Assembly (NCBI GenBank): GCA_965205025.1
Contig: CBDBFU010000013.1
Span: 1-64,000 of the forward strand
DNA from: Candidatus Poribacteria bacterium
GTDB lineage: Bacteria > Poribacteria > WGA-4E > WGA-3G
DNA: 64,000 nt
Direction of reading: 5' to 3'
Shown: positions 37,584 through 56,624 of the stretch, piece after piece
Position numbering within the stretch: position 1 is the first letter of the stretch
Layout of the letters: the number at the start of each line of letters is the position of its first letter
The notes under the pieces: model-generated
What the model saw: the letters and a program-made list of their open reading frames with translations, nothing else
What the model was told of the DNA's origin: nothing
Database searches by the model: none
Program-made: the position numbers and the translations under genes

Positions 37584-38081
37584 CTATACTTCATTAAATT
37601 TCTGAAACAGGTTTCGTAGGTTTTCTTGCGTAACAATTGGGTCTTCTATAATAATCCGCGCCCCACCGATTACATCCATAAATCCTAATTCCCGTTGGTA
37701 ACGTGGTACAACATGTAAATGTAAATGGGGTATACTGGCTCCTGATGTTTCACCCATATTAAATCCTATATTGAACCCGCGTGGTTGGTATGCCTCTGAC
37801 AATACCTCGAAACTTAAACACTGTAATTCATGCAGACCGAATACTTCATCAGAATTCAATTCACGTAAATCTACGACATGTCTTTGTGGGAATATCAATA
37901 GATGTCCGGGACTATAGGGGTATAAGTTAAGCGATATTGTGAATAACTCTGTGCGATGTACCTCTAACCTTTCAACCTTATCATCTTTTTCAACAATAGC
38001 ACATAATATACATTCAACCTTCGGTCGATTCTTTCCTTTTGCATAGGGTAATTTGTTTGGTACAAACAGATTTTGACGCAT
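37584..38081 (-). CDS. HIT-family nucleotide hydrolase (Ap4A phosphorylase-like)
   Basis: CILC, LNLYPYSPGHL, GASIPHLHLHVVPR. Confidence 0.92.
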   Translation of the reverse strand: MRQNLFVPNKLPYAKGKNRPKVECILCAIVEKDDKVERLEVHRTELFTISLNLYPYSPGHLLIFPQRHVVDLRELNSDEVFGLHELQCLSFEVLSEAYQPRGFNIGFNMGETSGASIPHLHLHVVPRYQRELGFMDVIGGARIIIEDPIVTQENLRNLFQKFNEV

Positions 38082-38253
38082 TATACTATCCTTATCTCAT
38101 AGTGTTATACTGGGACTGTTCCATAATAAACCATGTAAGATATAGATGCAAGTATAACGTGCGTGTGGGTTGTGTAAAGTTTTTGACACTATAGGCGTCA
38201 ATTTAAGCGTAATATTCTTCTATAGGGGAACTCCGATTCACTAATGTTGAATT

Positions 38254-39309
38254 TTAACTTATCGAAAAAACGCTCACTCCACCCGACTCGTCACCAACAG
38301 CAATATACTGGTCATTCGGTGCCCAAACGATGCTTGTGACCCCCGCTGTCAGAGTGGCTTCATGAACCGCACGGGAACTGAGTCTTCCTTTCAATTCCCA
38401 GACGTAGACCAGACCGTCGGCACCGCCTGAGGCCAGCAGTTTACCACTATGTTGAAAACGCACAACGCTGATAAAATTCCGATGGCCGGAAAGCGAAATA
38501 GGTTTGGTATCGGCCGGTCCGCTACCGGAACAATCCCACACCGTAACATCCAGACCGCCTCCCGTAGCTAAGAATCGACTTGTGGCATCCCATGAAAGTT
38601 CTTGCACTTTCGTCGGATAACCATACATTTGCAAGTCCTCTCCGGTAGACATAATCCAGAAATGTACGGTCGAATCTTGATCTCCGGTGGCGATGTATTT
38701 GCCGTCAGGGCTCCACGTAATCACCAATGATGAACCTTTCCAGACCAATCGGCGGACGGCTTCCGACTGTTCCGGGACCCACAGCGTGACACCGCCGTAG
38801 GTAATTGAGGCAAGTTGCCTTACACTCGGTTTCCATTGAATACCAGAAATCGTGCTCTGATGGTCGGGATATTCTTGAATAAGATCGCCGACAGCGTTCC
38901 AGACTTTCAGCTTACGTCCAGCGGCAGAGGCGAGTATCGGTTTTTCGCCGCCACTCCAAGCCAGGTGCTCAACCCATGCTGCGCCCCCGTCAAGCGAATG
39001 TGTCGCTTCGCCACTTGTGATATCCCACAACCGAATTTTCCCATCTTGTCCTGCGCTTGCAAGCACTTTGCTGTTTGGATGCCAAGCGATTGACATTGTG
39101 CCGAATTCATGCCCTTCGAAGGTATGGATAACCGTTCGTTGACGACCTTCAAAAATTGTCACCGGACCGAGAACCGACGCTGCAGCGATGTATCTCCCAT
39201 CAGGCGACCACGCCAGATCAATGACGTAGTCGCTGATGGTTGCGCTCCAATTTTCGCGTAGTTGAGAGGGCTGTACAAAGCGGTTGCTCAGTCTGTTCAA
39301 GCGAGACAT
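38254..39309 (-). CDS. WD40-repeat protein associated with COG0523
   Basis: Multiple WD repeats ([21 protein letters not shown]). Overlaps the stop of the GTPase gene. Confidence 0.92.
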
Positions 39310-40649
39310 GCTTCAAACCCTTCAGTCAATTCGGTACGGTTGAGGTTGCGTCCGATGAAGATGAGGCTATTGTAGCGCTCTTCATCACCCCATGGACGGT
39401 CGGGACGACCATCGAAGAGCATATGAACACCTTGGAAGACGAATCGGTTTGGCTGCCCCTTGATGCTCAGAATTCCTTTCATGCGGAAGATGTCAATACC
39501 TTTTGTCCGAAGCAGATCGCCAATCCAATCGTCCAACCGGTCGGGATTGAGGTCACCTGGGGTTGTGATGCCAACCGATGTAACTTCGTCATCATGTTCG
39601 TGGTCTGGCTTAAATTCGCGTTCAACAACTGGGTTGACAAGGGCACCGCTGCCGAAGAGTTGTGCTTGAAATTCGTCGGGGTGATGCTCGGTAAATAGTG
39701 CGTAAGCACCGGCGCGGTCGATCTGCACGTCAAAGCGTAATTCGTCCGCTGTGAGATTCAACTCAATGAGTTGTCCACTTGGTTGAAGGGTGCCACCCGT
39801 TGAAAGCTCATGCTCATCATCTGAGAAAACCATAACGACTGGCTCAACAGCGAGCTCCAAAGCTTCATCATTTGACTCATTTACGGGTACCAACGCGAGT
39901 TTCATCGACGGGTCAGGACCTTCTTGAAGAAGTAGTTCATGCGTACCAGCCGAAAGGTTATAAACACCTGCCCATTCAAAGGGGTATTCCGGTTCCATAA
40001 ACTGAGGGTCAACCTCCATCGCCCGGTCCAGATCGAATCCGCCGACATTGAGAATCTTGTCCATTTCAACCACGGCGTCTTTCGTTCGATAAATCTTCGC
40101 TGCACTGTTCATGCTGCGAATTCTGGCTTCCAGTTGATCTAACTCTTCCTCGGTCACAAGGTCAATCTTGTTCAACAAAATGACATCGGCAAAGGCAATC
40201 TGTTCACGAGCCTCGTCGCTGTCATCAATGTGCTGCCAAATGTGTTTGGCATCAACCACCGTCGTGACGGAATCCAGTTGCAGTTTCTCCTGCATTTCGG
40301 TGTCCATGAAGAACGTCTGAGCAACTGGTCCGGGGTCCGCAAGTCCTGTAGTTTCGACCATGATGTAGTCAAACTTATCACGACGCTTCATCAGATTACC
40401 TAAAATACGGATTAGATCACCACGCACTGTGCAGCAAATACAACCATTGTTCATCTCGAAAATCTCTTCTTCGGCACCGATGACCAAATCATTATCAACA
40501 CCGATCTCACCAAACTCGTTTTCGATGACGGCGATACGTTTGCCATGGTTTTCGGTGAGAATACGGTTGAGAAGCGTGGTTTTACCAGACCCTAAAAAGC
40601 CTGTCAACACGGTGACGGGGACTTGATCGTTTAGTATGGTTTCGTTCAT
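39297..40649 (-). CDS. COG0523/CobW-family metallochaperone GTPase with internal insertion
   Basis: [32 protein letters not shown] and CobW_C (RMKG..QGVH). Extra ~130 aa before CobW_C. Confidence 0.95.
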
Positions 40650-40668
40650 CTTTCTCTCCTTGTTGAAT

Positions 40669-40932
40669 TTAGCCAGCGGTTAAGCTAACGATGTCCGTCT
40701 GCTTCACCTCCGCCAGCGGTTTGTGAATTTTGTATTGTCGGGGCTTTCCCGGCGTCTCCATGATTGCAATGACCGTTTCAATAGGCGGACAGCCTTCTTC
40801 GGTGCATTCCAACTGAGAAATCATCACGGTGATATCCTCTGATAAGTCAAAGGCTTGGGAAACCCACGATTTGACTTGGACGATTTGCTGTGGGTCGCTC
40901 TCTTTTTTTGAATTGAAAAATTTCATCTGCAT
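40669..40932 (-). CDS. Small conserved protein with CxxxxCPP motif, COG0523-associated
   Basis: VKSWV..., [26 protein letters not shown] at 40932 follows GGAG. Confidence 0.75.
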
Positions 40933-41066
40933 CTGTAAGACTCCGTTGTATAAGAGGTTAGGATCCTCTATTCTCATGTAGAAACGGTTACTAACTCCAA
41001 TTTCCCAATCAAAGCATGTACAATCGTATTAGTATTATACATGTCATACCATAAGTAAAATTGAGA

Positions 41067-41099
41067 ACGGGGACAGATGATAGAAATTATCGTCCCCGT
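41067..41099 (-). terminator. Stem-loop downstream of TonB receptor gene
   Basis: ACGGGGAC...GTCCCCGT stem. Confidence 0.55.
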
Positions 41100-41109
41100 C
41101 CTGCAGTCT

Positions 41110-43377
41110 TTAAAAATTGAGTTTATACAGTAATTTCATATTTCGTCCGGGTTCCGGCATTGACGCTTTGATGCGGGACAGATGTTCACGATAAGTTGTA
41201 TCAAAGAGGTTTTCAATCTCAAAAACGATCATGTTCTCAAGCTGCAACCACGATAAATTGAGAAAACCACCAATATCATAGACGAGATAGCCGTCTGTCG
41301 GTTCCTCAAATTCGCCGAGTCGGGTCTGGCTGCCTGAAAAACGGGATGCAACATGCAAATGCAACGGTGTCGGCGTGTAACTGATGACGAATTTACCGTT
41401 GAGGGGTGGGATACGCTCCAGTGGTCGTCCACTGGTTTGAATAGTTCCGTGGATGTAACTCATATTCAACTGTAAATGGACCTGTGAGGCGACCTCACCA
41501 CCTATCTGAATTTCAGCTCCATCCATCACAACATCGTGTCCCATATATTGATAAATCCACAACCATCCGGCTGCCCCGCTGCCCCACTCCTTTTCACCAC
41601 TGTTCGTCGGAATGAGGTAGTTCTGTATCTGATTCCTGAAAAGTGCCAGATTGAGTCTGAACCTGTCATTAGTGTATTTGACAAAGAGTTCAGTGCCATA
41701 TCCATTCTCAGATTCCAGGTCTGCATTGCCGATTTCGTAGGAAAAGACAGCCAAGTGGGGGCCATCGCTGAAAAGTTCCTCAATACCGGGTGCGCGAAAC
41801 GTTTTCATGAGGGTCGCTCCAGTGCTCAACCCATCCGTCCAATGGTAAATTCCAGAGGCGGCACCGGAAACACCGCCGAAATCACGGCGTTTGACGGCTC
41901 CAGCTCGGACAACTGCACCGGGTCTAAACGGTTCGGCCCGTCTAACGTCGTAGCGGATAGCTCCTTGTAAAGTGAGGTTGTCAAAGTTACGCTGGTTTAG
42001 AAAAAATCCTGCCAACGCTAATTCACGGGTATGTGGTGTCCAGTAAAACCCGCCTGTGGCATGGTCTCTGTACTCACCCCAAATACCCGCAACGGCATTG
42101 TCAAACACGTGAGCCATTGCTGAGACATTGTAGGTTAGCACCCCGAATTCCACACCAAGTGTCCCGTTTGACTCCAGCTCTTGATGCTCATAACGCGTAT
42201 AGGCGCCCTGGAGTTTTACCTTTTCAAGCATTGTTGTATTGAATCGGTATTCCATCTGTCCTTCATAGCGTTGCTTGTCAAGTGAAATGTTAACTCCGCT
42301 GATATGTCCTTCTGGAGAACCAGGAACGCCGTAATCTGAACGATAACTGCTTCCAGATGTACCGATGTAGCCCCACGGCTTAATCATGGAGGCACCGCCT
42401 GAAAAATTGACGTTTGAAAGGGCAGTGTTTTCAAGGACACCCACCGGCGTTTGTATGTCGGATGCGCGACGCCGATTCCATTCTACATTCCCCGCAAAAT
42501 CACCAATGGGGATAGTAAAACCTGTCGTTCCAGTTAATCCTGAGTTTACAGATTCAGCCTGGAACGTTAGATGTGTATCAAGCCGTCTCGGTAGAATTTG
42601 AGGGATGTGATTGCTTTTGACGTTGATAACGCCACCCAGGGTACTTGAACCGTAAATGAGCGATGCGGGACCTCGTGTAATTTCAACGCCCTCAGCAGTC
42701 GTCGGATCAATGGATACGGCGTGGTCGGCACTGGAGGCGGATTTATCGCCTGTCCGTTCGCCGTTTTCCAAAATGAGTAGCCTGTCACCACCCAATCCAC
42801 GAATAACTGGACGGGCGATCGCACGTCCCATCGTCCGTTGTGAAACACCGATCTCATTTGCCAATGTGTTCGCCAAGGTCATGCCTAACCGTCTTTGGAG
42901 ATCTACCTCATCCAATGCTAAATCGGTTGTTTCCTCAAACTGTGAAAGAGTTCTATTTGAACCGAATACCCTGATGGTTTGCAGTTGAAACAACAGTGTC
43001 TCCAGTTCAATCTTGAGATAAGGCGTTGAGACATTGACATTAACGACCCGTTCAAACTGCTGATAACCAACCTTCATGAATTGAAGCGTCTGCTGTCCTT
43101 CCGGCACTGCGTCAAACTTAAACTGACCATTCACATCGGTTCTTACGTTCCTCTTAAGTCCTTTAATACGGACCGTAACCCCATCAAGTCGAGTACTGCT
43201 TTGTGTTTCAATGACCTCGCCTTCCAGGCACCGCCTTGTGTCCGGAGCACTTTGGACATCTTTGAGATAGCAGAACAGGCATCCTACTATTCCAAATACG
43301 AACACGAATAGGTGAGGACACGTTCTAAGCGTCCTCACCGTGGGAGACCTGTGCGAACAAGCACAAGTGCGTAACAT
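41110..43377 (-). CDS. TonB-dependent outer-membrane receptor (ZnuD-like) with N-terminal carboxypeptidase-regulatory-like domain
   Basis: RPVIRGLGGDR, SADHAV, RGPASLIYGS..GGVIN plug motifs, EELFSDGPH, NLFDTTY, C-terminal F. Confidence 0.93.
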   Translation of the reverse strand: MLRTCACSHRSPTVRTLRTCPHLFVFVFGIVGCLFCYLKDVQSAPDTRRCLEGEVIETQSSTRLDGVTVRIKGLKRNVRTDVNGQFKFDAVPEGQQTLQFMKVGYQQFERVVNVNVSTPYLKIELETLLFQLQTIRVFGSNRTLSQFEETTDLALDEVDLQRRLGMTLANTLANEIGVSQRTMGRAIARPVIRGLGGDRLLILENGERTGDKSASSADHAVSIDPTTAEGVEITRGPASLIYGSSTLGGVINVKSNHIPQILPRRLDTHLTFQAESVNSGLTGTTGFTIPIGDFAGNVEWNRRRASDIQTPVGVLENTALSNVNFSGGASMIKPWGYIGTSGSSYRSDYGVPGSPEGHISGVNISLDKQRYEGQMEYRFNTTMLEKVKLQGAYTRYEHQELESNGTLGVEFGVLTYNVSAMAHVFDNAVAGIWGEYRDHATGGFYWTPHTRELALAGFFLNQRNFDNLTLQGAIRYDVRRAEPFRPGAVVRAGAVKRRDFGGVSGAASGIYHWTDGLSTGATLMKTFRAPGIEELFSDGPHLAVFSYEIGNADLESENGYGTELFVKYTNDRFRLNLALFRNQIQNYLIPTNSGEKEWGSGAAGWLWIYQYMGHDVVMDGAEIQIGGEVASQVHLQLNMSYIHGTIQTSGRPLERIPPLNGKFVISYTPTPLHLHVASRFSGSQTRLGEFEEPTDGYLVYDIGGFLNLSWLQLENMIVFEIENLFDTTYREHLSRIKASMPEPGRNMKLLYKLNF

Positions 43378-43387
43378 GATGTCCCCC

Positions 43388-44029
43388 TTATTCTACTGTT
43401 ACCGGTATCAGAAGTGCCGCTGTGAAGTCCGGATGATCTCCGTGAAGAAGTTGCAGTTTAATTTCCGTTTTTCCTGCTTTCAGTCCCTCGAGTCCAAACG
43501 GTAACGCGTCAGCGTGGTCTTCACCATCATGGTCGTCATCTTCTTCACCTTCATGGTCTTCTTCACCTTCATGGTCATGTTCATCCAGATGGATCTTAAT
43601 AATAGTGGCATCGTAACCCGTCAGACCCAAACTGAAGGATTCCAACCCATCATGGTCATGGTCATCTTCACCTGCATGGTCATCTTCACCTGGCGGGGGT
43701 GCTACTTCAGCGAGACTGAGTTCGTTTTCATCCGCGTCAAGAAAATGTACATGTACCTCAATTTCTTCACCAACGGGAACGGTGAGACCGCCTTCATGGT
43801 GGCCTTGATGTTGATGATAGACCACTTTTCCATCGACTTCCAGGTTAAAGCCGTCGGCATCGGCGTGAAGGGGTGCATCCATGTGGTCGTCGTCGTGATC
43901 ATGATCATCATCATGGATAGGGTTGTCTTCACCACAACCTCCCATGAAGGGAAGTACAGCAATAAGGGTTATTAACATTACTCGTGAAATGATGTCAGAA
44001 AAATCGCGTTCAAATAAATTTGTAAACAT
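43388..44029 (-). CDS. His/Asp/Glu-rich lipoprotein, probable metal-binding accessory of the receptor
   Basis: Lipobox FMGGC, three H/D/E-rich tracts and LLHGDHPDF. ATG at 44029 follows GGAG. Confidence 0.85.
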   Translation of the reverse strand: MFTNLFERDFSDIISRVMLITLIAVLPFMGGCGEDNPIHDDDHDHDDDHMDAPLHADADGFNLEVDGKVVYHQHQGHHEGGLTVPVGEEIEVHVHFLDADENELSLAEVAPPPGEDDHAGEDDHDHDGLESFSLGLTGYDATIIKIHLDEHDHEGEEDHEGEEDDDHDGEDHADALPFGLEGLKAGKTEIKLQLLHGDHPDFTAALLIPVTVE

Positions 44030-49086: not shown

Positions 49087-49540
49087 TTAACACTTGAACA
49101 TACTGCCAGCTATAAGGAGAACAACTGTGAACCTAAACGAAGTGAATCTTGGTGATAAAGGCACAATAAGCGATATAGCAATAAAACTCCGGGATATTTT
49201 CAAAAATTTCAAAGGATAACTTGGATTATTAAAGACTGGTAGACGAACACTTAGGGTGAATGACGCGATTACAGCTATTGTGTTTCTCTTGAATACCTAA
49301 TTAATGTAGAAGAGTAAATTATCCCACCAGTAACGAATCCACCTGTATCATCCCTTACCTACTAAGGGGTACTCTATTTACAAGTTTTTAATTATCAAAC
49401 TCACGTTTATGTAGACTTGATAGTTATGTATCTGCACCTTTTTTAAATCATTAAAACAGGCAGATTTAATCAAAAATACTTAACTACGTGAGTTTGATAA
49501 TTAACAAGATGTGCGCAAATTAAACAGAGAACAGGCATAT

Positions 49541-49678
49541 TTGCTGAAAAAATCGTCATTTTGGTGTTTTTAACCCCTAAAGAATCAACGGTATGAATGC
49601 CTTATGGCATTCCCCGCCCTTATCAGGGGACTTTAAGAGGAAATGTGGAAGACCTAACTATTTATCAAACTCACGTTA
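49541..49678 (+). repeat. Composite repeat (degenerate family D MITE + family E insert + TTATCAAACTCACGTT end), inverted copy at 59648-59786
   Basis: About 138 bp, near-identical to the reverse complement of 59648-59786. Confidence 0.9.
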
Positions 49679-49941
49679 ACTGGTATATTGAATTCTAAAC
49701 TTATCTCTTTTGGTTAAAGTATAAAGGTGAATTGCAAGGGACAAATTATCAAATAGATAAACAACCTTTATTACCAATACTCCTAATTTCACCACATACT
49801 GAAGAACAGATGATCAGATACTTGATGCTAAACAAGCCGCCCCGATGTGGACACTTCCGACCTTGAAAATGAGATTGATAAGCTGGTGTGCGAATTGTAT
49901 AATTTAACGGTAGATGAGATTGCGATTTTGGAAGGAAAAGA

Positions 49942-52581
49942 ATGAGCAAACCGCTAAAAGGATTCATCACTTATTCACATAAAGACGCTGCAGCAAAGGA
50001 CGAATTGCGAGAACGCCTTGCTGTCATGGAGCAGAAAAATGAACTCACCACTTGGCACGATGGTGAAATTACTGCGGGTGACGAGTGGTATGAAGATATT
50101 TCCAAAAATCTTGCAGGGTCGGATATGCTTCTCTACCTCGTATCAGCAGCAAGTCTTGCCTCTAAAAACTGCAACAAAGAATTAGCAGAAGCCTTAACCG
50201 CAGACATAAAAGTCATTCCGATCATTCTTGAGTATTGCGATTGGCAGCAGCATCAACTCAGCGACTTTGAGGTTCTACCTTCCAAAGGTAAACCGATTTC
50301 CAACTGGGAGGAACCGAGCGAAGGTTGGCAAAATGTAGTGGATGGAATCCGAAAAGTCGTTGAAATGCAGTCTGAGAATTGTTTTTCTGAAACTATTGAG
50401 AAAAAACTTCGAGCTGAATCAGAATTCCACCGTGGGAATGTTCAGCAGCTGCTTGGGCAGATAGATACGGCAATAGAAGCCTACTCACAGTCCATTGACC
50501 TTAAACCTCGTGTTGCTTGTTCTTATAACAATCGCGGGGCTGCTTACCAGAAAAAAGGAAACTTTGATCGCGCCATTGAAGATTTTAACACGGCAATTGA
50601 ACTAAAAAATGACTACAGCCAAGCTTATTATAATCGTGGGTTCACTTATTACGAAAACGGTAAAATTGAAAAAGCACTTGAAAACTATAATAAAGCAATA
50701 AAACTCAAACCTGATTATGCTGAAGCATATAGCAATCGAGGCAATATTTATAAAAAAGATAGCAATCTTGATAAAGCTGTCGCAGACTATAACATAGCGA
50801 TAAAACTCAAACCAGACCTTGCTGAAGTTCATTACAATCGCAGTGTAGTTTACGAAAATGAAGGCGATTATGATAGGGCTATCCAAGATTGTAACACAGC
50901 AATAAAACTCAAACCTGATTTTCCCGAGGCATACAATAATCGCGGTAACGCTTACATAGGAAAAGGTGAATTTGACAGTGCTATCAACGATTATGATATG
51001 ACGATAAAACTCAAACCCGATTATGCCGAGGCGTATTACAGCCGTGGTACTATTTATGGTAGAATTGGCAATTCTGATAGTGCAATTAAAGACTTTGATA
51101 AAGCGATAGAACTCAAACCTGATTTTCCAGAGGCATACAGTAATCGCGGTAACACTTACGTCTTTGAAGGCAAGTTGGAAAACGCTCTCAAAGACTACAC
51201 CGAAGCAATACAACTTAAACACGACTATGTTGATGCTTACTATAATCGTGGGGCAGTTTATGGCATAACAGGCAATTATGATAGGGCAATCAAAGATTAT
51301 ACCGAAGCGATAAAACTCAATCCACAACATGCCAACGCATATAATAATCGTGGAGTGGCTTGGTTACACCTGCAAGAATGGGATAAAGCCAAAACCGATT
51401 TCACAACTGCCAAACGGTTAGGTGTGGACATAATTGCAATATTCCATAATTCCTACAAAAATGTTGAGAGTTATGAGAAGCGACATCGTGTCAAATTACC
51501 AGAAGACATCGCATTGCTTTTGACAGAACGCCGTCGTACCCGCTACCCCAAAACGCGTAACTTTTTGGATGCCGATGGCAACCCGTTTGAATCGCCGGAC
51601 GTGGTGAATTTACGCGAGCAGTTGCGCAACGTTGGACCACCTTTAAGCGAGTACATCAATGCAAAGTCCGCCTTCGGTATTAACACTGCACCCACTGAGG
51701 TGTTTGTGGTAAACAAAGCAACACGAAATAAACTCATTGCAGCTCATCCTTCCTCTGCTGATATTTTAAAACCGTTTTTACACGGACAGGAGCTCAGACG
51801 TTGGTACGTTGATACACCGCACCAGTGGTTAATCTTTACCCACCGAGGTATAACAATAGACGACTATCCAGCAATCCTGGAGTATTTAGAAAAACATAAA
51901 GAACCTTTGAGGAAAAGAAAAGGAAAACAGGAATGGTATGAGTTGCCAGCACCTCTTAAAGATGTGGAGCGTTTTGCACAACCGAAACTGGTCTGTCCAA
52001 ATACCTATAACCATCAGACTTTCGCGGTGGATACTGCCGGTTATTATTATGGGAATACGTCCTATCTCATCCCAACTGAAGAAACGTGGCTTTGTGGTCT
52101 CCTCAATTCCCGTACTGTGGAGTGGTTTTATTCACAGGTGTCAAAACAATTGACGATTGATCCGCTTCGGGCGCGCAGCGGGTATATCCAGCAGATTCCG
52201 ATTCCCAACATCACGCCAGTACACAAAGCACTTATAGCTAAAGTCGTTGATTATCTGATCTGTCTACAGCAGCAACCGGAGATAAACAGCAAGGATTTGG
52301 CACATGCCCGTGACCGCATAATGCTCGGATATTTTGAGCGAGTTATTGATGGATTGGTTTATGAGGCTTACCTACCTGCTGAACTTCAGAAGAGCGATAA
52401 AGTTTTCTTGCAACCGTTATTAGACGAGGGGTTGCCGTCACTTGAAGAGATTCAGGGTGATAAAATGTCTGCTCTCCGGGACATCTTTGAGCTGTTATAT
52501 GACAGGATGCATCTTGTCCGACGCCACCTTTATTATCTGGATGTTATAAAACCTATCCGCATCATTCAAGGAAAACTGTGA
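49942..52581 (+). CDS. TIR domain - ~10 TPR repeats - TaqI_C/Eco57I-like target recognition domain fusion
   Basis: TIR: FITYSHKD, WHDGEITAGDEW, LVSAASLASKNCNKE. TPRs: AIKLKPDYAEAY.NRG. TRD: LKPFLHGQELRRW, DYPAILEYLEKHK, WYEL, PKLV, LCGLLNS, QIPIP. No MTase motifs. Confidence 0.88.
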   Translation: MSKPLKGFITYSHKDAAAKDELRERLAVMEQKNELTTWHDGEITAGDEWYEDISKNLAGSDMLLYLVSAASLASKNCNKELAEALTADIKVIPIILEYCDWQQHQLSDFEVLPSKGKPISNWEEPSEGWQNVVDGIRKVVEMQSENCFSETIEKKLRAESEFHRGNVQQLLGQIDTAIEAYSQSIDLKPRVACSYNNRGAAYQKKGNFDRAIEDFNTAIELKNDYSQAYYNRGFTYYENGKIEKALENYNKAIKLKPDYAEAYSNRGNIYKKDSNLDKAVADYNIAIKLKPDLAEVHYNRSVVYENEGDYDRAIQDCNTAIKLKPDFPEAYNNRGNAYIGKGEFDSAINDYDMTIKLKPDYAEAYYSRGTIYGRIGNSDSAIKDFDKAIELKPDFPEAYSNRGNTYVFEGKLENALKDYTEAIQLKHDYVDAYYNRGAVYGITGNYDRAIKDYTEAIKLNPQHANAYNNRGVAWLHLQEWDKAKTDFTTAKRLGVDIIAIFHNSYKNVESYEKRHRVKLPEDIALLLTERRRTRYPKTRNFLDADGNPFESPDVVNLREQLRNVGPPLSEYINAKSAFGINTAPTEVFVVNKATRNKLIAAHPSSADILKPFLHGQELRRWYVDTPHQWLIFTHRGITIDDYPAILEYLEKHKEPLRKRKGKQEWYELPAPLKDVERFAQPKLVCPNTYNHQTFAVDTAGYYYGNTSYLIPTEETWLCGLLNSRTVEWFYSQVSKQLTIDPLRARSGYIQQIPIPNITPVHKALIAKVVDYLICLQQQPEINSKDLAHARDRIMLGYFERVIDGLVYEAYLPAELQKSDKVFLQPLLDEGLPSLEEIQGDKMSALRDIFELLYDRMHLVRRHLYYLDVIKPIRIIQGKL

Positions 52582-54006
52582 AAATAACCGACATTGAGAT
52601 AAAAAACTTCAGAGCTTTTCCCAAACCCTACCAAATCAAGCTGGATAATGCAGGAAAGAATTTATTAGTTTATGGAGAAAACGGGAGTGGAAAATCATCG
52701 TTGTATCTCGCGTTAAAATATTTCTTCAAATCAGGTTTGGATACCAACGACGAGAGTGACAAAAGTAATGATTTTGAAAGTCATCAGAACATCTTTGTCA
52801 ATGATCCTGGTCATGTCAAACTCTCTTTCGGTAAAGATTCCTATGAGTGGTCAAAATCCATTACAGAAACGACTGATGAACTGATTAAGGAGACAGCAAA
52901 AGCGAGCGGATTTCTTGACTATAAAGACCTTTTGGGAGTACACTATCTGCAACCCGAAGGCGAAGCAGTGAATGTGTTTGATTTGCTGGTTGAGACGCTT
53001 TTAGCATATACTATCAACCCTGTGACGGACAGAACCCTCGTAGACGATTGGGATGAGATCCAAGGAACCTTATCCCCGTAGAAGTGCAAAAAATAAAATT
53101 GCAGACCTTGAAAATCGGATAGACATCTTCAACATTGAACTTGCTAACAGATTAGATGAATTGCGTCCAAAAGTGAGCGAGATTCTTGGTAAGTTCGGAT
53201 ATAAAGTTGATCTTGATTTAGATTTTCAAGGTGTAACCTATAATCACACGAATAAAACGCTTGATAACCAGCAGATTCTATTGAATGTCAAATTCTTTGA
53301 CAAAGATGTCTCTAAAGAATACCTTTTGTTAAATGAAGCAAAATTGTCAGCAATTGCAATTTCCATTTATCTTTCATCGATTCTACTTCTACCAGATCCA
53401 GAAAGTGGATTGAGAATTCTTGCCCTTGATGATGTTCTAATCGGTTTGGACATGTCTAACCGCTTTCCAGTCCTTGATATACTTGAGGAGTACTTCAAAG
53501 ATTACCAAATCTTTTTGATGACTTACGATAAAGCCTGGTATGAGATTGCTAAACAACGGTTGGATGAGCAGAATTGGAAATACACTGAATTTTATTTCAA
53601 AGCAACCGACGAATACGAAATACCTGTGTGTAAGGAAGATAGACCATATTTGGAAAAAGCAAAAGAATATCTTGATGAGAATGACTATAAGGCTTGTGCT
53701 ATTTATGTTCGCACTGCATTTGAAGCGGCAATCAAGAAATATTGTGAGGAAAAAGACCTTGCTGTAAAATACCGTGAAAACCCAAAAGACTTGAAAAGTG
53801 AAGATTTCTGGGTGCCGATTAAAACAAAAATGAACGATGCTGGCAATCTTCTTTTGAATGTAAAAGTTGTTGACAAGATTGAATCGACTCGAAAATTTAC
53901 TTTAAACGAACTTTCTCATGTATCTGTTGCGAACATCTACATAAAAGAACTTGAGGATGCCATTGCAGCCGTGGAGGAGCTTGAAACTGCGTTAACATCA
54001 GTCTAA
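52578..54006 (+). CDS. RloC-like/AAA_13 ABC-ATPase with C-terminal HEPN-like domain, split by a +1 frameshift at ~53061-53064
   Basis: IKNFRAF, Walker A YGENGSGKSS, signature LNEAKLSA, Walker B LDDVLIGLD, MTYD, and C-terminal RTAFE...RKFTLNELSH. The frames join as DEIQ-EPYPRR. The GTG start overlaps the upstream TGA. Confidence 0.8.
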
Positions 54007-54428
54007 GTTTTACTAAGTCATTCACAACGATACAGACCAGATCAGTGAACTGCTAACACCCCCACAACCATAGCAGCAAAACAAAAACACTCACCTTAGC
54101 GGATAACCTGATGTTACAGACTGCCAATCCGTGAAATCCGTGTAATCTGTGTAATCCGTGATTCAGACAACAAAGAATCCCGAACAGACAAGACAACCCT
54201 CACACCACAGCACAAACCAATGCAAAGGCTTACACTTGAAAACGGTCTTGCTAAGCTGGGGTCTGAACTGTCCAATTTAAGGGAAAAAGAAATTGCGATT
54301 GTGGAGAGGGCTGTCTGATTAGTAGAAGGCACTGAGTTTGAGAGGGTAATAGGGATTTTGGTTGATATGTGGGGGTTGGTTGCGTTATCATTACCCTCAA
54401 GTAATACGAATTGTGCGGGAGAAAAGAT

Positions 54429-55094
54429 ATGCAAGAACTAAATCAAAGGTTTGTTAATGCCTCTTACGACCTCAATTTTATTTATGCTGATAACACACTT
54501 TTTCGCAAACAGAATAGTGTTGAGGCACACAATAACCAAGGCATTAATCATGCCGAAAATGGACATTATGATCTTGCCATCACCTCCTTCAACAAAGCCA
54601 TAGAACTGAAACCTGATTTTGCAACAGCCTATAATAATCGAGGTCTAACTTATCTGCTCAACGACGAAGTTGATAAGGCAATAAGAGATTATACGAAAGT
54701 AATAGAACTTAACCCAGATAATGCGGAAGTCTATAACATTCGTGGATGTATTTATTTCAGCAAAAATGTGGTTGACCGTGCCATTAAAGACTTTAATAAA
54801 GCAATAGAGCTTAACCCAGATAATGCCGTTGTCTATAACAACCGCGGTTTAGCTTATGCGAAAAAAAGTATGGTGGAACTCGCTATTGCTGACTATTCTA
54901 AAGCGATAGCACTCAATCCCGATTATACTGAGGTATATTATTATCGCGGAGGTGCATTGTTACGACTCGAAAAGCGAGAGAGGGCTAAATTAGACATCGC
55001 GATTGCCAGAAGCATGGAATATGACGCTCTCATTGCCTTAGACAAAATTCTGAAAGAATACGATCGCGGATGGAAAACCCTTGCCGACTTATGA
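54429..55094 (+). CDS. TPR-repeat protein
   Basis: About 5 TPRs (AIELNPDNA..YNNRG). ATG at 54429. Confidence 0.85.
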   Translation: MQELNQRFVNASYDLNFIYADNTLFRKQNSVEAHNNQGINHAENGHYDLAITSFNKAIELKPDFATAYNNRGLTYLLNDEVDKAIRDYTKVIELNPDNAEVYNIRGCIYFSKNVVDRAIKDFNKAIELNPDNAVVYNNRGLAYAKKSMVELAIADYSKAIALNPDYTEVYYYRGGALLRLEKRERAKLDIAIARSMEYDALIALDKILKEYDRGWKTLADL

Positions 55095-56288: not shown

Positions 56289-56624
56289 TTACCTCTCTTT
56301 GCGTTTCCTATGCTGAAAAGTTGGTGGTTCCCATTGAAGTTCATCAGGAATATAAGCGGTTATGAACTCAATTAGGACTGGATGAGCATGTTCACAGACG
56401 ACATGTAGGTAAACGGGTACGCCGTCTTGGAGCGTTGTCCTACCACTAATTAAGACTCGTTCTTCCTCTAAATATTCCTCTATGATCTCCCCATTCAAAA
56501 TTACGTCAATAATATGTTTACGTTCAAAACCTTCTTTTAATGCGTGCTGCACAGCATGTGGTTTCGTCAGATAGTGTCCATCGCGGATTCTATTTTGTAT
56601 AGTTTGTATATTCAAAGTTTCCAT
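56289..56624 (-). CDS. DUF4258 (RelE-like) putative toxin
   Basis: HA, ILNGEIIEEY, LHVVC, ITAYIPD..W. Confidence 0.85.
   Translation of the reverse strand: METLNIQTIQNRIRDGHYLTKPHAVQHALKEGFERKHIIDVILNGEIIEEYLEEERVLISGRTTLQDGVPVYLHVVCEHAHPVLIEFITAYIPDELQWEPPTFQHRKRKER

Follow-up and report, generated by a model that had tools for sequence, protein, structure and literature searches.

What would a bacterium do with a protein that begins as a TIR protein and ends as the DNA-reading part of a restriction enzyme? The question arises in a Candidatus Poribacteria bacterium (GenBank assembly GCA_965205025.1), in positions 1 to 64,000 of contig CBDBFU010000013.1 (this whole 64,000-nucleotide stretch is called the window below). 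At positions 49,942 to 54,006, a gene for a protein with a TIR domain, tetratricopeptide repeats (TPRs), and a target-recognition domain (TRD) like that of type IIG restriction-modification (RM) enzymes runs into a gene for an ATP-binding cassette (ABC) ATPase with a HEPN fold. A first-pass annotation, made from the letters alone, had proposed that the pair is a new defence system in which a TIR-TPR part took the place of the nuclease-methylase of a type IIG enzyme. With moderate confidence, we read the locus as a decayed copy of a conserved two-gene module, most likely one for anti-phage abortive infection. The evidence comes from the domains of the two proteins, from their pairing across genomes, and from restriction enzymes that bear the same helical tail and are followed by the same ATPase gene.

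The two proteins and their pairing

Gene 1 (49942-52581; features lie on the plus strand unless stated otherwise) encodes an 879-aa protein, P0001. It opens with a TIR domain (aa 1-147; 49942-50382) recognized by Pfam, PADLOC, motif, and alignment: TIR_2 matches aa 8-110 (E 1.3e-14), and a ThsB-type TIR model of PADLOC (ThsB1) matches aa 8-147 (7.4e-27) over positions 5-149 of its 319-position profile. The catalytic glutamate, which had been reported as retained, is indeed present as Glu80 in the motif SKNCNKE (aa 74-80), and both Glu80 and Ser68 are invariant in all 38 aligned TIR domains of the family. An array of 10 TPRs follows (aa 164-497; 50431-51432), in keeping with the earlier count of about 10; TPR_1 occurs in 10 stretches (E 4.3e-92), and the DNA itself has a periodicity of 102/204 nt. 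After the last repeat come a conserved cap and linker (aa 498-548; 51433-51585), defined by motif comparison with relatives, and the same cap motif also terminates TPR proteins of related genomes that are without the C-terminal module. The TRD-like core (aa 549-783; 51586-52290) was assigned from Pfam and from homology to M.BseCI and Eco57I-type IIG enzymes. It contains TaqI_C (aa 610-754, E 2.6e-14) and is matched by type IIG models of PADLOC (aa 551-771, 1.3e-21), which bears out the proposed specificity domain of Eco57I/TaqI_C type. Further, the C-terminal profile of the family matches the TRD of M.BseCI (7qw5_A, 4.3e-15), and the atlas neighbours of the core are the TaqI_C and MmeI_TRD clusters. 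The last part, including the stop codon, consists of C-terminal helices (aa 784-879; 52291-52581), a predicted docking site for the ATPase that was assigned from a complex model and from the co-occurrence of tail and ATPase gene in IIG enzymes.

Gene 1 is no methylase, as the first reading had it. Regular expressions for methylase motifs I and IV (F.G.G and [DNS]PP[YFW]) gave zero matches in the 879 aa; Pfam has no match to N6_Mtase, Eco57I, or MmeI_Mtase and, at E <=0.01, none to any methylase or nuclease family, the N-terminus being TIR. Among the best 25 of 33 Pfam families at E <=0.01, no STAND NTPase was seen, NCBIfam gave nothing useful for any part, and in a by-eye judgement of the translation, no signal peptide was seen at the N-terminus.

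Gene 2 starts inside the stop codon of gene 1. Positions 52576-52583 read CTGTGAAA, in which the TGA of gene 1 (52579-52581) overlaps the GTG of gene 2 (52578-52580), so that the overlap noticed in the first-pass annotation is found at 52578-52581. The gene is present in two pieces: the first (52578-53081, 167 aa) carries the N-terminal lobe, Walker A included, of an ABC head that resembles Rad50/SMC, and the second (53053-54006, 317 aa) carries the coiled-coil insert, the signature/Walker B lobe, and the HEPN region (~53635-54003). Intact orthologues are 474-501 aa long. In an AlphaFold model of one of them, which is weak as a whole (mean predicted local distance difference test, pLDDT, 63; head partly <50) and better over its C-terminal 120 residues (75-94), the head resembles Rad50 (3qkt_A, Foldseek 5e-6) and the heads of cohesin/SMC, Rad50, and RecF (VIA Z 12-13). 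Positions 1-317 of the family profile match Rad50 3qku_A (6.7e-7), and other structural matches include PtuA of retron I-A (9n69), PtuA (8ee4), and Lamassu LmuB (9uxl). The downstream gene was thus correctly called an ABC ATPase.

As a statement about fold, the HEPN assignment is correct. In the orthologue model, residues 360-478 match the HEPN structure 1ufb_A (VIA Z 10.5, root-mean-square deviation 2.5 A, 104 aligned residues), other HEPN structures (2hsb_A, Z 10.3; 1wol_A, Z 9.8; 4nqf_B, Z 9.3), sacsin 3o10_A (Z 9.3), and Csm6 6tug_A (Z 8.7), values that carry the tool's caveat that helical bundles may reach Z ~10 by chance. All five C-terminal pieces submitted to Pfam match DUF4145, with E values (0.002-0.02) that stay below threshold, and three of the five match HEPN at ~0.05. 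The HEPN domain is tandem-duplicated in P0127, a 606-aa database protein of the ATPase family, and its copy 2 passes the DUF4145 cut-off (30.9 vs 23.1 bits). In that second copy, the position of the conserved histidine is not His. The motif given in the first reading, R-x6-SH, had been miscounted: the actual motif is TRKFTLNELSH, or R-x8-H (R443-x8-H452). Y381, R383, E387, C394, L447, N448, and H452 never vary across 54 ATPase sequences, at least 90% of which have R443. K39 (Walker A), D289/D290 (Walker B), Y381, R383, E387, L447, N448, and H452 are identical in 11 of 11 sequences (five of the family and six distant ATPases), with R443 replaced by K in one of the six distant homologues. R383, E387, and K391 in the first HEPN helices fit an R-x3-E-x3-K pattern, and an Ex3[KR] element is mentioned in the accessible part of a HEPN review (PMC3710099).

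The label RloC-like does not hold in the sense of family membership. Pfam AAA_13 (PF13166, the RloC/PrrC family) has no match in the N-terminal piece of the window (E <=0.01) or in the intact orthologue (E <=0.001); it is weak in two of six distant ATPase homologues (16.6 and 22.6 bits, cut-off 36) and is precomputed for two of the 120 relatives listed from roughly 3,500 ATPase homologues. The gene 2 product is best called an ABC-HEPN protein of the general kind treated in the accessible part of PMC3710099, rather than a PrrC or RloC.

How tightly are the two genes bound to each other? In the first 16 related loci, the ATPase gene lies directly downstream in all 15 with room for it (13 intact, 474-501 aa; two broken). 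A scan of one genome per species gave a larger set of 76 loci with 74 proteins that have the full C-terminal module, and 69 of the 74 genes have room, defined here as >=1500 nt downstream. An uninterrupted ATPase open reading frame (ORF) of >=450 aa follows in 54 of these 69, a broken copy in 13, and nothing in two, so that an ATPase gene or its remnant comes directly after the module in 67 of the 69. The 13 broken copies are frameshifted, truncated, or stop-containing and begin at the same overlapping start (an in-frame stop was seen in L052/G003); of the 54 intact cases, 37 have an NTGA junction. A search of 41 related genomes for the ATPase itself gave matches at E <=1e-20 in 21, and all 26 nonwindow matches away from contig ends adjoin a match to the C-terminal module. 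Inside one genus, the ATPase is patchily distributed (14 of 24 genomes), as is typical of an accessory gene. For gene 1, it is an obligate partner.

Descent of the C-terminal module and spread of the family

Searched against 1.84 billion representatives, a profile of the C-terminal module matched 8447 proteins (E <=0.001). Scores exceed 670 bits for eight full-length matches and then drop to 393 bits and below, where the matches are proteins of ~960-1340 aa matched at their C-termini (profile positions 35-381). Seven of these were run through Pfam, which found Eco57I together with TaqI_C in six and TaqI_C alone in one. The IIG enzyme of one metagenome locus (L150) is 35.8% identical in its C-terminal 335 aa to aa 549-878 of the window protein. 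Homology of this kind shows that the C-terminal module is derived from an Eco57I-type type IIG enzyme.

The enzymes themselves provide a test of what the tail goes with. Among 80 metagenome loci of one Eco57I+TaqI_C enzyme, which were searched with the module and ATPase profiles, the module profile matches 48, and in seven of the 48 the match runs to the very end (position >=375), that is, with the terminal helices included. IIG enzymes with the terminal helices have an ATPase-HEPN gene downstream in six of six loci with room (E 3e-86 to 6e-185), overlapping or abutting the IIG gene in five and 1.6 kb off in one. There are 41 IIG loci without the terminal helices, 25 of them with room, and none of the 25 has the ATPase gene; nor does any of the 32 loci without a match to the module profile. 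A hypergeometric calculation made by hand puts the difference between 6/6 and 0/25 at ~1.4e-6, with the limit that related loci are not independent observations. As a rule, the ATPase gene comes after the protein with the helical tail, be it a true restriction enzyme or a TIR-TPR protein. The earlier idea that a TIR-TPR part replaced the nuclease-methylase of a IIG enzyme is thus supported by the identity to the L150 enzyme and by the shared ATPase-HEPN gene. It is the best reading because a IIG subfamily is itself followed by the same ATPase-HEPN gene, and its strongest support is that tail and ATPase-HEPN travel together.

A protein of ~1,060-1,110 aa precedes the IIG gene in five of the six loci with tail and ATPase, and the two upstream ORFs that were run (L150 and L155) match the 'HKD+Snf2' model and DrmD-like helicases in PADLOC. 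As a side observation, five loci from outside sponge symbionts (L150, L151, L154, L155, and L212) share the order of a ~1,060-1,110-aa ORF, an Eco57I-type IIG enzyme of ~1,260-1,340 aa with the docking helices, and an ABC-HEPN ATPase; L157 starts within the IIG gene. By BLAST, there is no HKD-SNF2 gene in the Poribacteria loci or in the window.

Structure prediction for the module together with the ATPase gave interface scores (ipSAE) of 0.85, 0.87, and 0.85, the best of three controls giving 0.00; the mark used is reached by 58 of 80 solved complexes and two of 110 mismatched pairs, a calibration that is only rough here, where our own 54-row alignments of both proteins were used. The runs agree in >=70% of contacts, and the partner pLDDT is >=81. 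Confident contacts involve residues 287-303, 321-322, and 358-382 of the 382-residue module, which correspond to about aa 784-800, 818-819, and 855-879 of the window protein, and residues 54-57, 105-114, 152-157, 181-198, 221-223, and 275-280 of the ATPase. The terminal helices are therefore predicted to dock on the ATPase, a model that supports binding, and the tail that docks in it is also the one with which the ATPase gene goes in the independent comparison of genomes.

The fusion could in principle be a one-off recombination chimera or an assembly artefact, possibilities that we reject. A search with aa 500-879 matched 766 database proteins. The best 120 of the 766 are 79-89% identical to this part and have lengths of 493-1212 aa, and many of these 120 combine TIR_2, TPR families, and TaqI_C; those with names are given as 'tetratricopeptide repeat protein [Candidatus Poribacteria bacterium]'. 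Chance is excluded because the whole architecture is kept in many genomes. The 766 matches, the 76 loci, and the contigs of public runs with the same sequence establish the fusion as a conserved family. By record title, the 76 loci come from 70 Candidatus or uncultured Poribacteria metagenome-assembled genomes (MAGs), three Latescibacterota, one Gemmatimonadetes, and two records named 'uncultured bacterium'.

Within this family, the N-terminus is exchangeable. BLAST comparison with N-terminal queries assigned the 74 full-module proteins to TIR (37), none, that is, straight to the TPRs (21), FRG (13), and HNH-like (three) classes; one FRG call, that of L103, is doubtful, with TPRs from residue 51 and no Pfam match before them, and the counts may be 12 for FRG and 22 for none. 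Pfam on eight N-termini confirmed TIR_2 in one and FRG in five, and in the paralogue of the window's own genome, HNH_5 reaches 24.8 bits against a cut-off of 27.5. TPR copy number ranges from 3 to 32 among relatives. An unrooted FastTree phylogeny of the C-terminal modules, with no supports other than SH-like ones, requires at least 18 changes of N-terminal class; the copies from Latescibacterota and Gemmatimonadota form one supported group (99*), and all other named rows are Poribacteria. The accessible part of Iyer and co-workers (PMC9503650) describes FRG as an ART-superfamily domain and putative NADase effector of prokaryotic immunity.

A neutrally decaying TRD was likewise considered and ruled out. 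Pairwise Nei-Gojobori comparison of the window with seven relatives gave ratios of nonsynonymous to synonymous substitution rates (dN/dS) of 0.10-0.17 for the C-terminal/TRD module, 0.11-0.26 for the TIR domain, and 0.08-0.23 for both ATPase pieces, with dS of 0.5-3.0, near saturation in some pairs. All parts of the module are under purifying selection. The TRD core itself, and not just the tail, has invariant residues.

Function, decay, and rival explanations

What might such a module do? We propose a mechanism by analogy with PrrC and EcoprrI. Gene 1 supplies an exchangeable N-terminal effector, TPRs in varying number, a cap, and a IIG-derived TRD with a helical tail; gene 2 supplies an ABC ATPase of Rad50-like build, in which the coiled coil is short and the C-terminus is a HEPN domain of the DUF4145 kind. 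In the putative ancestral system (HKD-SNF2 helicase, IIG methylase-TRD, and ABC-HEPN), the ATPase-HEPN protein would be seated on a restriction enzyme, much like PrrC on EcoprrI. Sponge symbionts would have swapped the enzymatic part for a TPR sensor and for effectors that consume NAD or cut DNA. A signal read by the TPR array, the TRD, or both, for which phage DNA, a phage protein, or an anti-restriction protein are candidates, would switch the ATPase, whereupon both the HEPN RNase and the TIR NADase would be released and the infected cell would be stopped.

Several points weigh against this reading. TPR and TIR proteins of sponge symbionts are usually read as host-interaction proteins, being classic eukaryote-like domains, and the family is found only in sponge-associated lineages. 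Pattern searches of viral contigs gave 68 matches and zero relatives. The closest loci of the same genus have housekeeping neighbours (YceI, a BNR-repeat protein, and ThrRS), and a IIG gene is lacking from the available flanking DNA of 52 of the 74 loci. In 15 of 69 loci, gene 1 is open next to a broken or absent ATPase gene, which points either to a gene 1 that functions on its own or to frequent decay. The spacing R-x8-H departs from the canonical motif of active HEPN RNases, Rx4-6H. Neither protein matches any named or candidate system (HEC, PDC) of PADLOC-DB v2.0.0 beyond single domains. The AlphaFold model of the C-terminal module (mean pLDDT 47.5) was set aside, which leaves its fold assignment to profile matches; the weak ATPase model, the Z caveat, and the rough docking calibration given above count on the same side.

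A different possibility, to which we give a little under an even chance, concerns this genome only: the open TIR-TPR-TRD gene may be an inert relic, functionless and awaiting decay, or acting alone in a reduced way. Much of the locus is indeed damaged. DNA alignment with three orthologues shows an extra base at 53062, a +1 frameshift in the ATPase gene. Contigs of three public runs (two studies) carry the window sequence across 53062 without gaps, and a fourth run contains a relative, ~96% identical, that is without the base; at least one of the three runs may be the source sample of the window, and they are possibly not independent of the assembly. The frameshift is real. A second module in the same genome (contig C15:381056-384040; locus L006, 380472-384040) encodes a 994-aa protein with an HNH-like N-terminus, ~5 TPRs, and a module 50% identical to that of the window, and it is followed only by an ATPase remnant, the last 86 profile positions (385-470). 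There is no intact ATPase-HEPN gene in this genome because the window copy is frameshifted and the C15 copy is a HEPN remnant.

The damage extends to the other side of gene 1, where an Eco57I-type IIG gene has been reduced to its last 37 codons (49835-49945), the TGA of which overlaps the ATG of the TIR gene (ATGA). Four IIG enzymes encoded upstream of the module in relatives share 58-65% identity with this remnant over their last 31-36 residues (tblastn E 9e-6 to 2.7e-4), and tblastn found nothing of the rest of the IIG gene upstream of it. We considered whether a IIG tail is carried along with the module and rejected this, for a tail of this kind directly at the start codon is absent from all 74 other loci. 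Where the IIG gene was lost, the gap holds inverted and direct repeats like those of a miniature inverted-repeat transposable element (49380-49676, no strand assigned): two 27-nt arms (49380-49406 and 49486-49512) show 89% complementarity, another copy is found at 49659-49677, and the three copies of this ~19-27-nt element, both direct and inverted, have the core TTATCAAACTCACGT. The system is probably not working in this genome because the ATPase is frameshifted, C15 has only a HEPN remnant, and the IIG gene is down to 37 codons; breaks like that of the ATPase occur in 13 of 69 related loci. On the other side, gene 1 keeps its full 879-codon frame with dN/dS of 0.10-0.26 against relatives, and the break in the ATPase gene is recent because both of its pieces still have dN/dS of 0.08-0.23. 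A promoter-like site (TTGATA-17-TATAAT; 49875-49903) also precedes gene 1, lying inside the remnant ~40 nt before the start codon; it agrees with 11 of 12 consensus positions, as a consensus match only, in a region with 19 such sites against 14.8 expected. RNA runs X17-X19 contain only 6% of sampled words and have no bearing on expression.

A narrower explanation, unlikely in our estimate, is a special case of the abortive-infection reading that names the trigger: the TRD would be bait, and a DNA mimic of the Ocr/ArdA type, or unmodified DNA, would release TIR and HEPN and so back up a neighbouring RM enzyme. The descent of the module from a IIG enzyme that was itself coupled to an ATPase-HEPN gene speaks for it, as do the invariant residues and low dN/dS of the TRD core. 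The neighbourhood is also suggestive in part, with an Eco57I-type IIG gene, intact and in the same orientation, upstream of the module in 22 of 74 loci (two of these, L044 and L046, are among the window's nearest relatives on the tree) and the methylase system Hma, as HmaB/HmaC, upstream in two of 74. PADLOC also places PDC-M54A beside one locus, which together with these IIG and Hma genes counts for a defence context of the module at large. Precedent exists in PrrC, which according to the accessible part of PMC3710099 is silenced by its type I enzyme and freed by Stp. However, 52 of 74 loci are without a IIG gene in the available DNA, and where such an enzyme is adjacent, its TRD is only 25-39% identical to the module, and at its C-terminus stands a different tail or another ending instead of the docking helices. 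Mean column identity of the module between loci is 62%, more than expected if it tracked a variable specificity. A stronger form of this explanation, in which the TRD is an integrated decoy, a DNA-reading surface kept purely as bait for phage DNA-mimic anti-restriction proteins, seems to us more doubtful still.

The window has a candidate for such a neighbouring enzyme, and the first-pass annotation had suggested that the pair might be guarding it. P0004 (45985-49086), in the same small island, is a 1033-aa type IIG/type ISP-like RM enzyme with Type_ISP_C (2.6e-97), ISP_coupler, and N6_Mtase in Pfam and a PADLOC match to REase_MTase_IIG (PDLC03621) over positions 61-1014 of 1024 (1.1e-184). 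It looks like a complete single-chain enzyme, with a candidate PD-(D/E)xK motif seen by eye as D...EAK near aa 70-88. Guarding of P0004 is unlikely because no homologue of it occurs in any of the 74 related loci; it is an island neighbour, unrelated to the conserved partner.

Other upstream genes recur with the family. An extra TIR- or FRG-TPR gene without the module lies upstream in 16 of 74 loci, and these proteins may be extra effector subunits of the same system. Such genes, often one or two, were noted upstream in L034, L038, L042, L046, L068, L072, and L077 and likewise in L084, L089, L092, L096, L101, L103, and L117. The upstream TPR proteins whose C-termini were read (L046, L068, and L117) end in the same cap motif, without the TRD module. 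As to Hma, the accessible part of a preprint (10.1101/2024.01.29.577857) used genes embedded in Hma systems to find new defences. In loci of the same genus as the window, neighbours of 205, 300, and 1345 aa that looked BREX-like by size proved to be YceI, an unknown protein, and a BNR-repeat protein.

The weakest alternative, which we regard as very improbable, is that a TIR-TPR 'eukaryote-like protein' disturbs TIR signalling or phagocytosis of the sponge and that its restriction tail is incidental, an idea favoured by the 70 of 76 loci that are Poribacteria MAGs and by the sponge metagenomes among the runs with parts of the locus, and opposed by the interchange of TIR with FRG, HNH, or nothing on one backbone, by the obligate overlapping ATPase-HEPN partner, by a module that descends from and is often linked to RM genes, and by an N-terminus in which no signal peptide was seen by eye.

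The rest of the surroundings can be described briefly. Just past the ATPase gene, a frame at 54100-54330 weakly resembles a IIG tail (tblastn E 0.15), and at 54126-54161 the 9-nt unit AATCCGTGA is repeated four times. A TPR-only protein of 227 aa with four TPRs (54411-55094) has an N-terminal motif similar to that of effector-less family members. On the minus strand, a small ORF (56289-56624) matches DUF4258 (E 2e-8), a family often annotated as toxin-like. Upstream, the block 38001-44000 has a G+C content of 0.47-0.49, compared with 0.32-0.41 elsewhere, and contains, besides other large ORFs, a minus-strand gene for a TonB-dependent receptor (41110-43377); the block may be of foreign origin or highly expressed.

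Relation to known systems and meaning

The closest parallels are PrrC with EcoprrI, and RloC. Like these, gene 2 has a Rad50/SMC-like ABC head (3qkt_A, 5e-6) and a C-terminal HEPN (1ufb_A, Z 10.5). PrrC and RloC are encoded with RM genes; here, the ATPase gene follows a true IIG enzyme in six of six metagenome loci with tail and room, and a IIG gene lies upstream of the fusion in 22 of 74. According to the accessible part of PMC3710099, PrrC is held by EcoprrI, kept silent by this type I enzyme and freed by the phage Stp peptide, and the docking model here seats the ATPase on a module derived from a restriction enzyme. The differences are that AAA_13 is unmatched, that the HEPN is of the DUF4145/MNT-associated kind with R-x8-H and not Rx4-6H, that the partner is the tail of a type IIG TRD and not a type I enzyme, and that the long coiled coil and zinc hook of RloC were not seen. 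RM-linked ABC-HEPN proteins are an established theme in the accessible part of the same review. A group of ABC-HEPN proteins typified by ERFG_01251 (Anantharaman et al. 2013), likened here by description, fits the structural neighbours 1ufb, 2hsb, and 1wol; in the accessible part of that source, it is reported near CRISPR-Cas loci, not with TRD-bearing partners.

The C-terminal 330 aa of gene 1 are homologous over their full length to Eco57I-family IIG enzymes and to the TRD of M.BseCI (PDB 7qw5). Unlike those enzymes, gene 1 is without methylase motifs I and IV, and its N-terminal 550 aa are TIR and TPR. With ThsB of Thoeris, it shares the TIR domain (7.4e-27 to ThsB1) and the catalytic Glu. 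It differs in that the TIR is fused to TPRs and a TRD, with only positions 5-149 of the 319-position ThsB profile matched, and no ThsA effector (SIR2 or Macro/SLOG) was found among P0001-P0004 (Pfam, PADLOC) or 10 neighbouring ORFs (Pfam only). TIR-STAND proteins, Avs-type receptors, and BcTir/Tpr share the logic of a TIR effector with a TPR array, as far as described in the accessible part of 10.1101/2023.05.26.542521; the NTPase here is a separate protein of ABC type, and the TRD tail has no counterpart there.

PARIS, Septu/retron I-A, Lamassu, and MADS (MAD3-MAD4) have in common with our module a coiled-coil ABC ATPase that partners an effector protein, and exchangeable effector domains are also a feature of Lamassu LmuA. 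The difference is that here the ATPase itself bears the HEPN and its partner bears TPRs and a TRD. PADLOC matches of the ATPase to AriA, PtuA, LmuB, GajA, and mad3 are weak (E 1e-6 to 1e-12), lie mainly in the P-loop lobe, and come without a match to any partner protein; AriA, for instance, is matched only over aa 2-84 (1.5e-12) or 1-237 (5.2e-8), and no Toprim protein, the kind of partner that AriB is, is present in the locus. MADS was considered and rejected, the mad2/mad3 matches reflecting only shared methylase and OLD-like ABC ATPase folds. Matches of the ATPase to HEC-01A/B, PDC-S06, and others are confined to the first ~110 residues (E 1e-5 to 1e-6), and gene 1 matches only TIR, IIG, methylase, and generic TPR models.

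We found no description of TIR/FRG-TPR-TaqI_C proteins with an ABC-HEPN partner in literature outside subscription journals and supplementary tables; the pair might be listed in the supplementary tables of 10.1101/2024.01.29.577857, the accessible part of Kaur et al. 2020 (PMC7159879) does not describe the architecture, and the MANTIS preprint gave nothing that bears on it. Known already is the back-up logic of RM-linked ABC-HEPN proteins with exchangeable effectors. New, as far as we have seen, are the ancestral pairing of a IIG enzyme with ABC-HEPN and the exaptation by which TPR-effector proteins acquired a TRD together with its docking tail.

These findings offer a testable case of how an immune system may be rebuilt, in which a TRD and docking tail would have been cut from an enzyme and fused to TPRs and swappable effectors while the ATPase-RNase partner was kept. 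The three-gene system (HKD-SNF2, IIG methylase-TRD, and ABC-HEPN) of soil and other metagenomes may be the type IIG counterpart of PrrC-EcoprrI. If the TRD were an integrated decoy, sponge symbionts would possess a receptor comparable to the 'integrated decoy' NLRs of plants, with ABC-HEPN in place of STAND as its chassis and with two suicide effectors, NADase and RNase, fired together. TIR, FRG, HNH, and none on one backbone form a natural series for probing the predicted NADase role of FRG. Finally, the family is very abundant in Candidatus Poribacteria, with the ATPase in 21 of 41 sampled genomes and thousands of database matches, and some of the TPR/TIR proteins that make up the 'eukaryote-like' repertoire of sponge symbionts may therefore serve in phage defence, not host manipulation.

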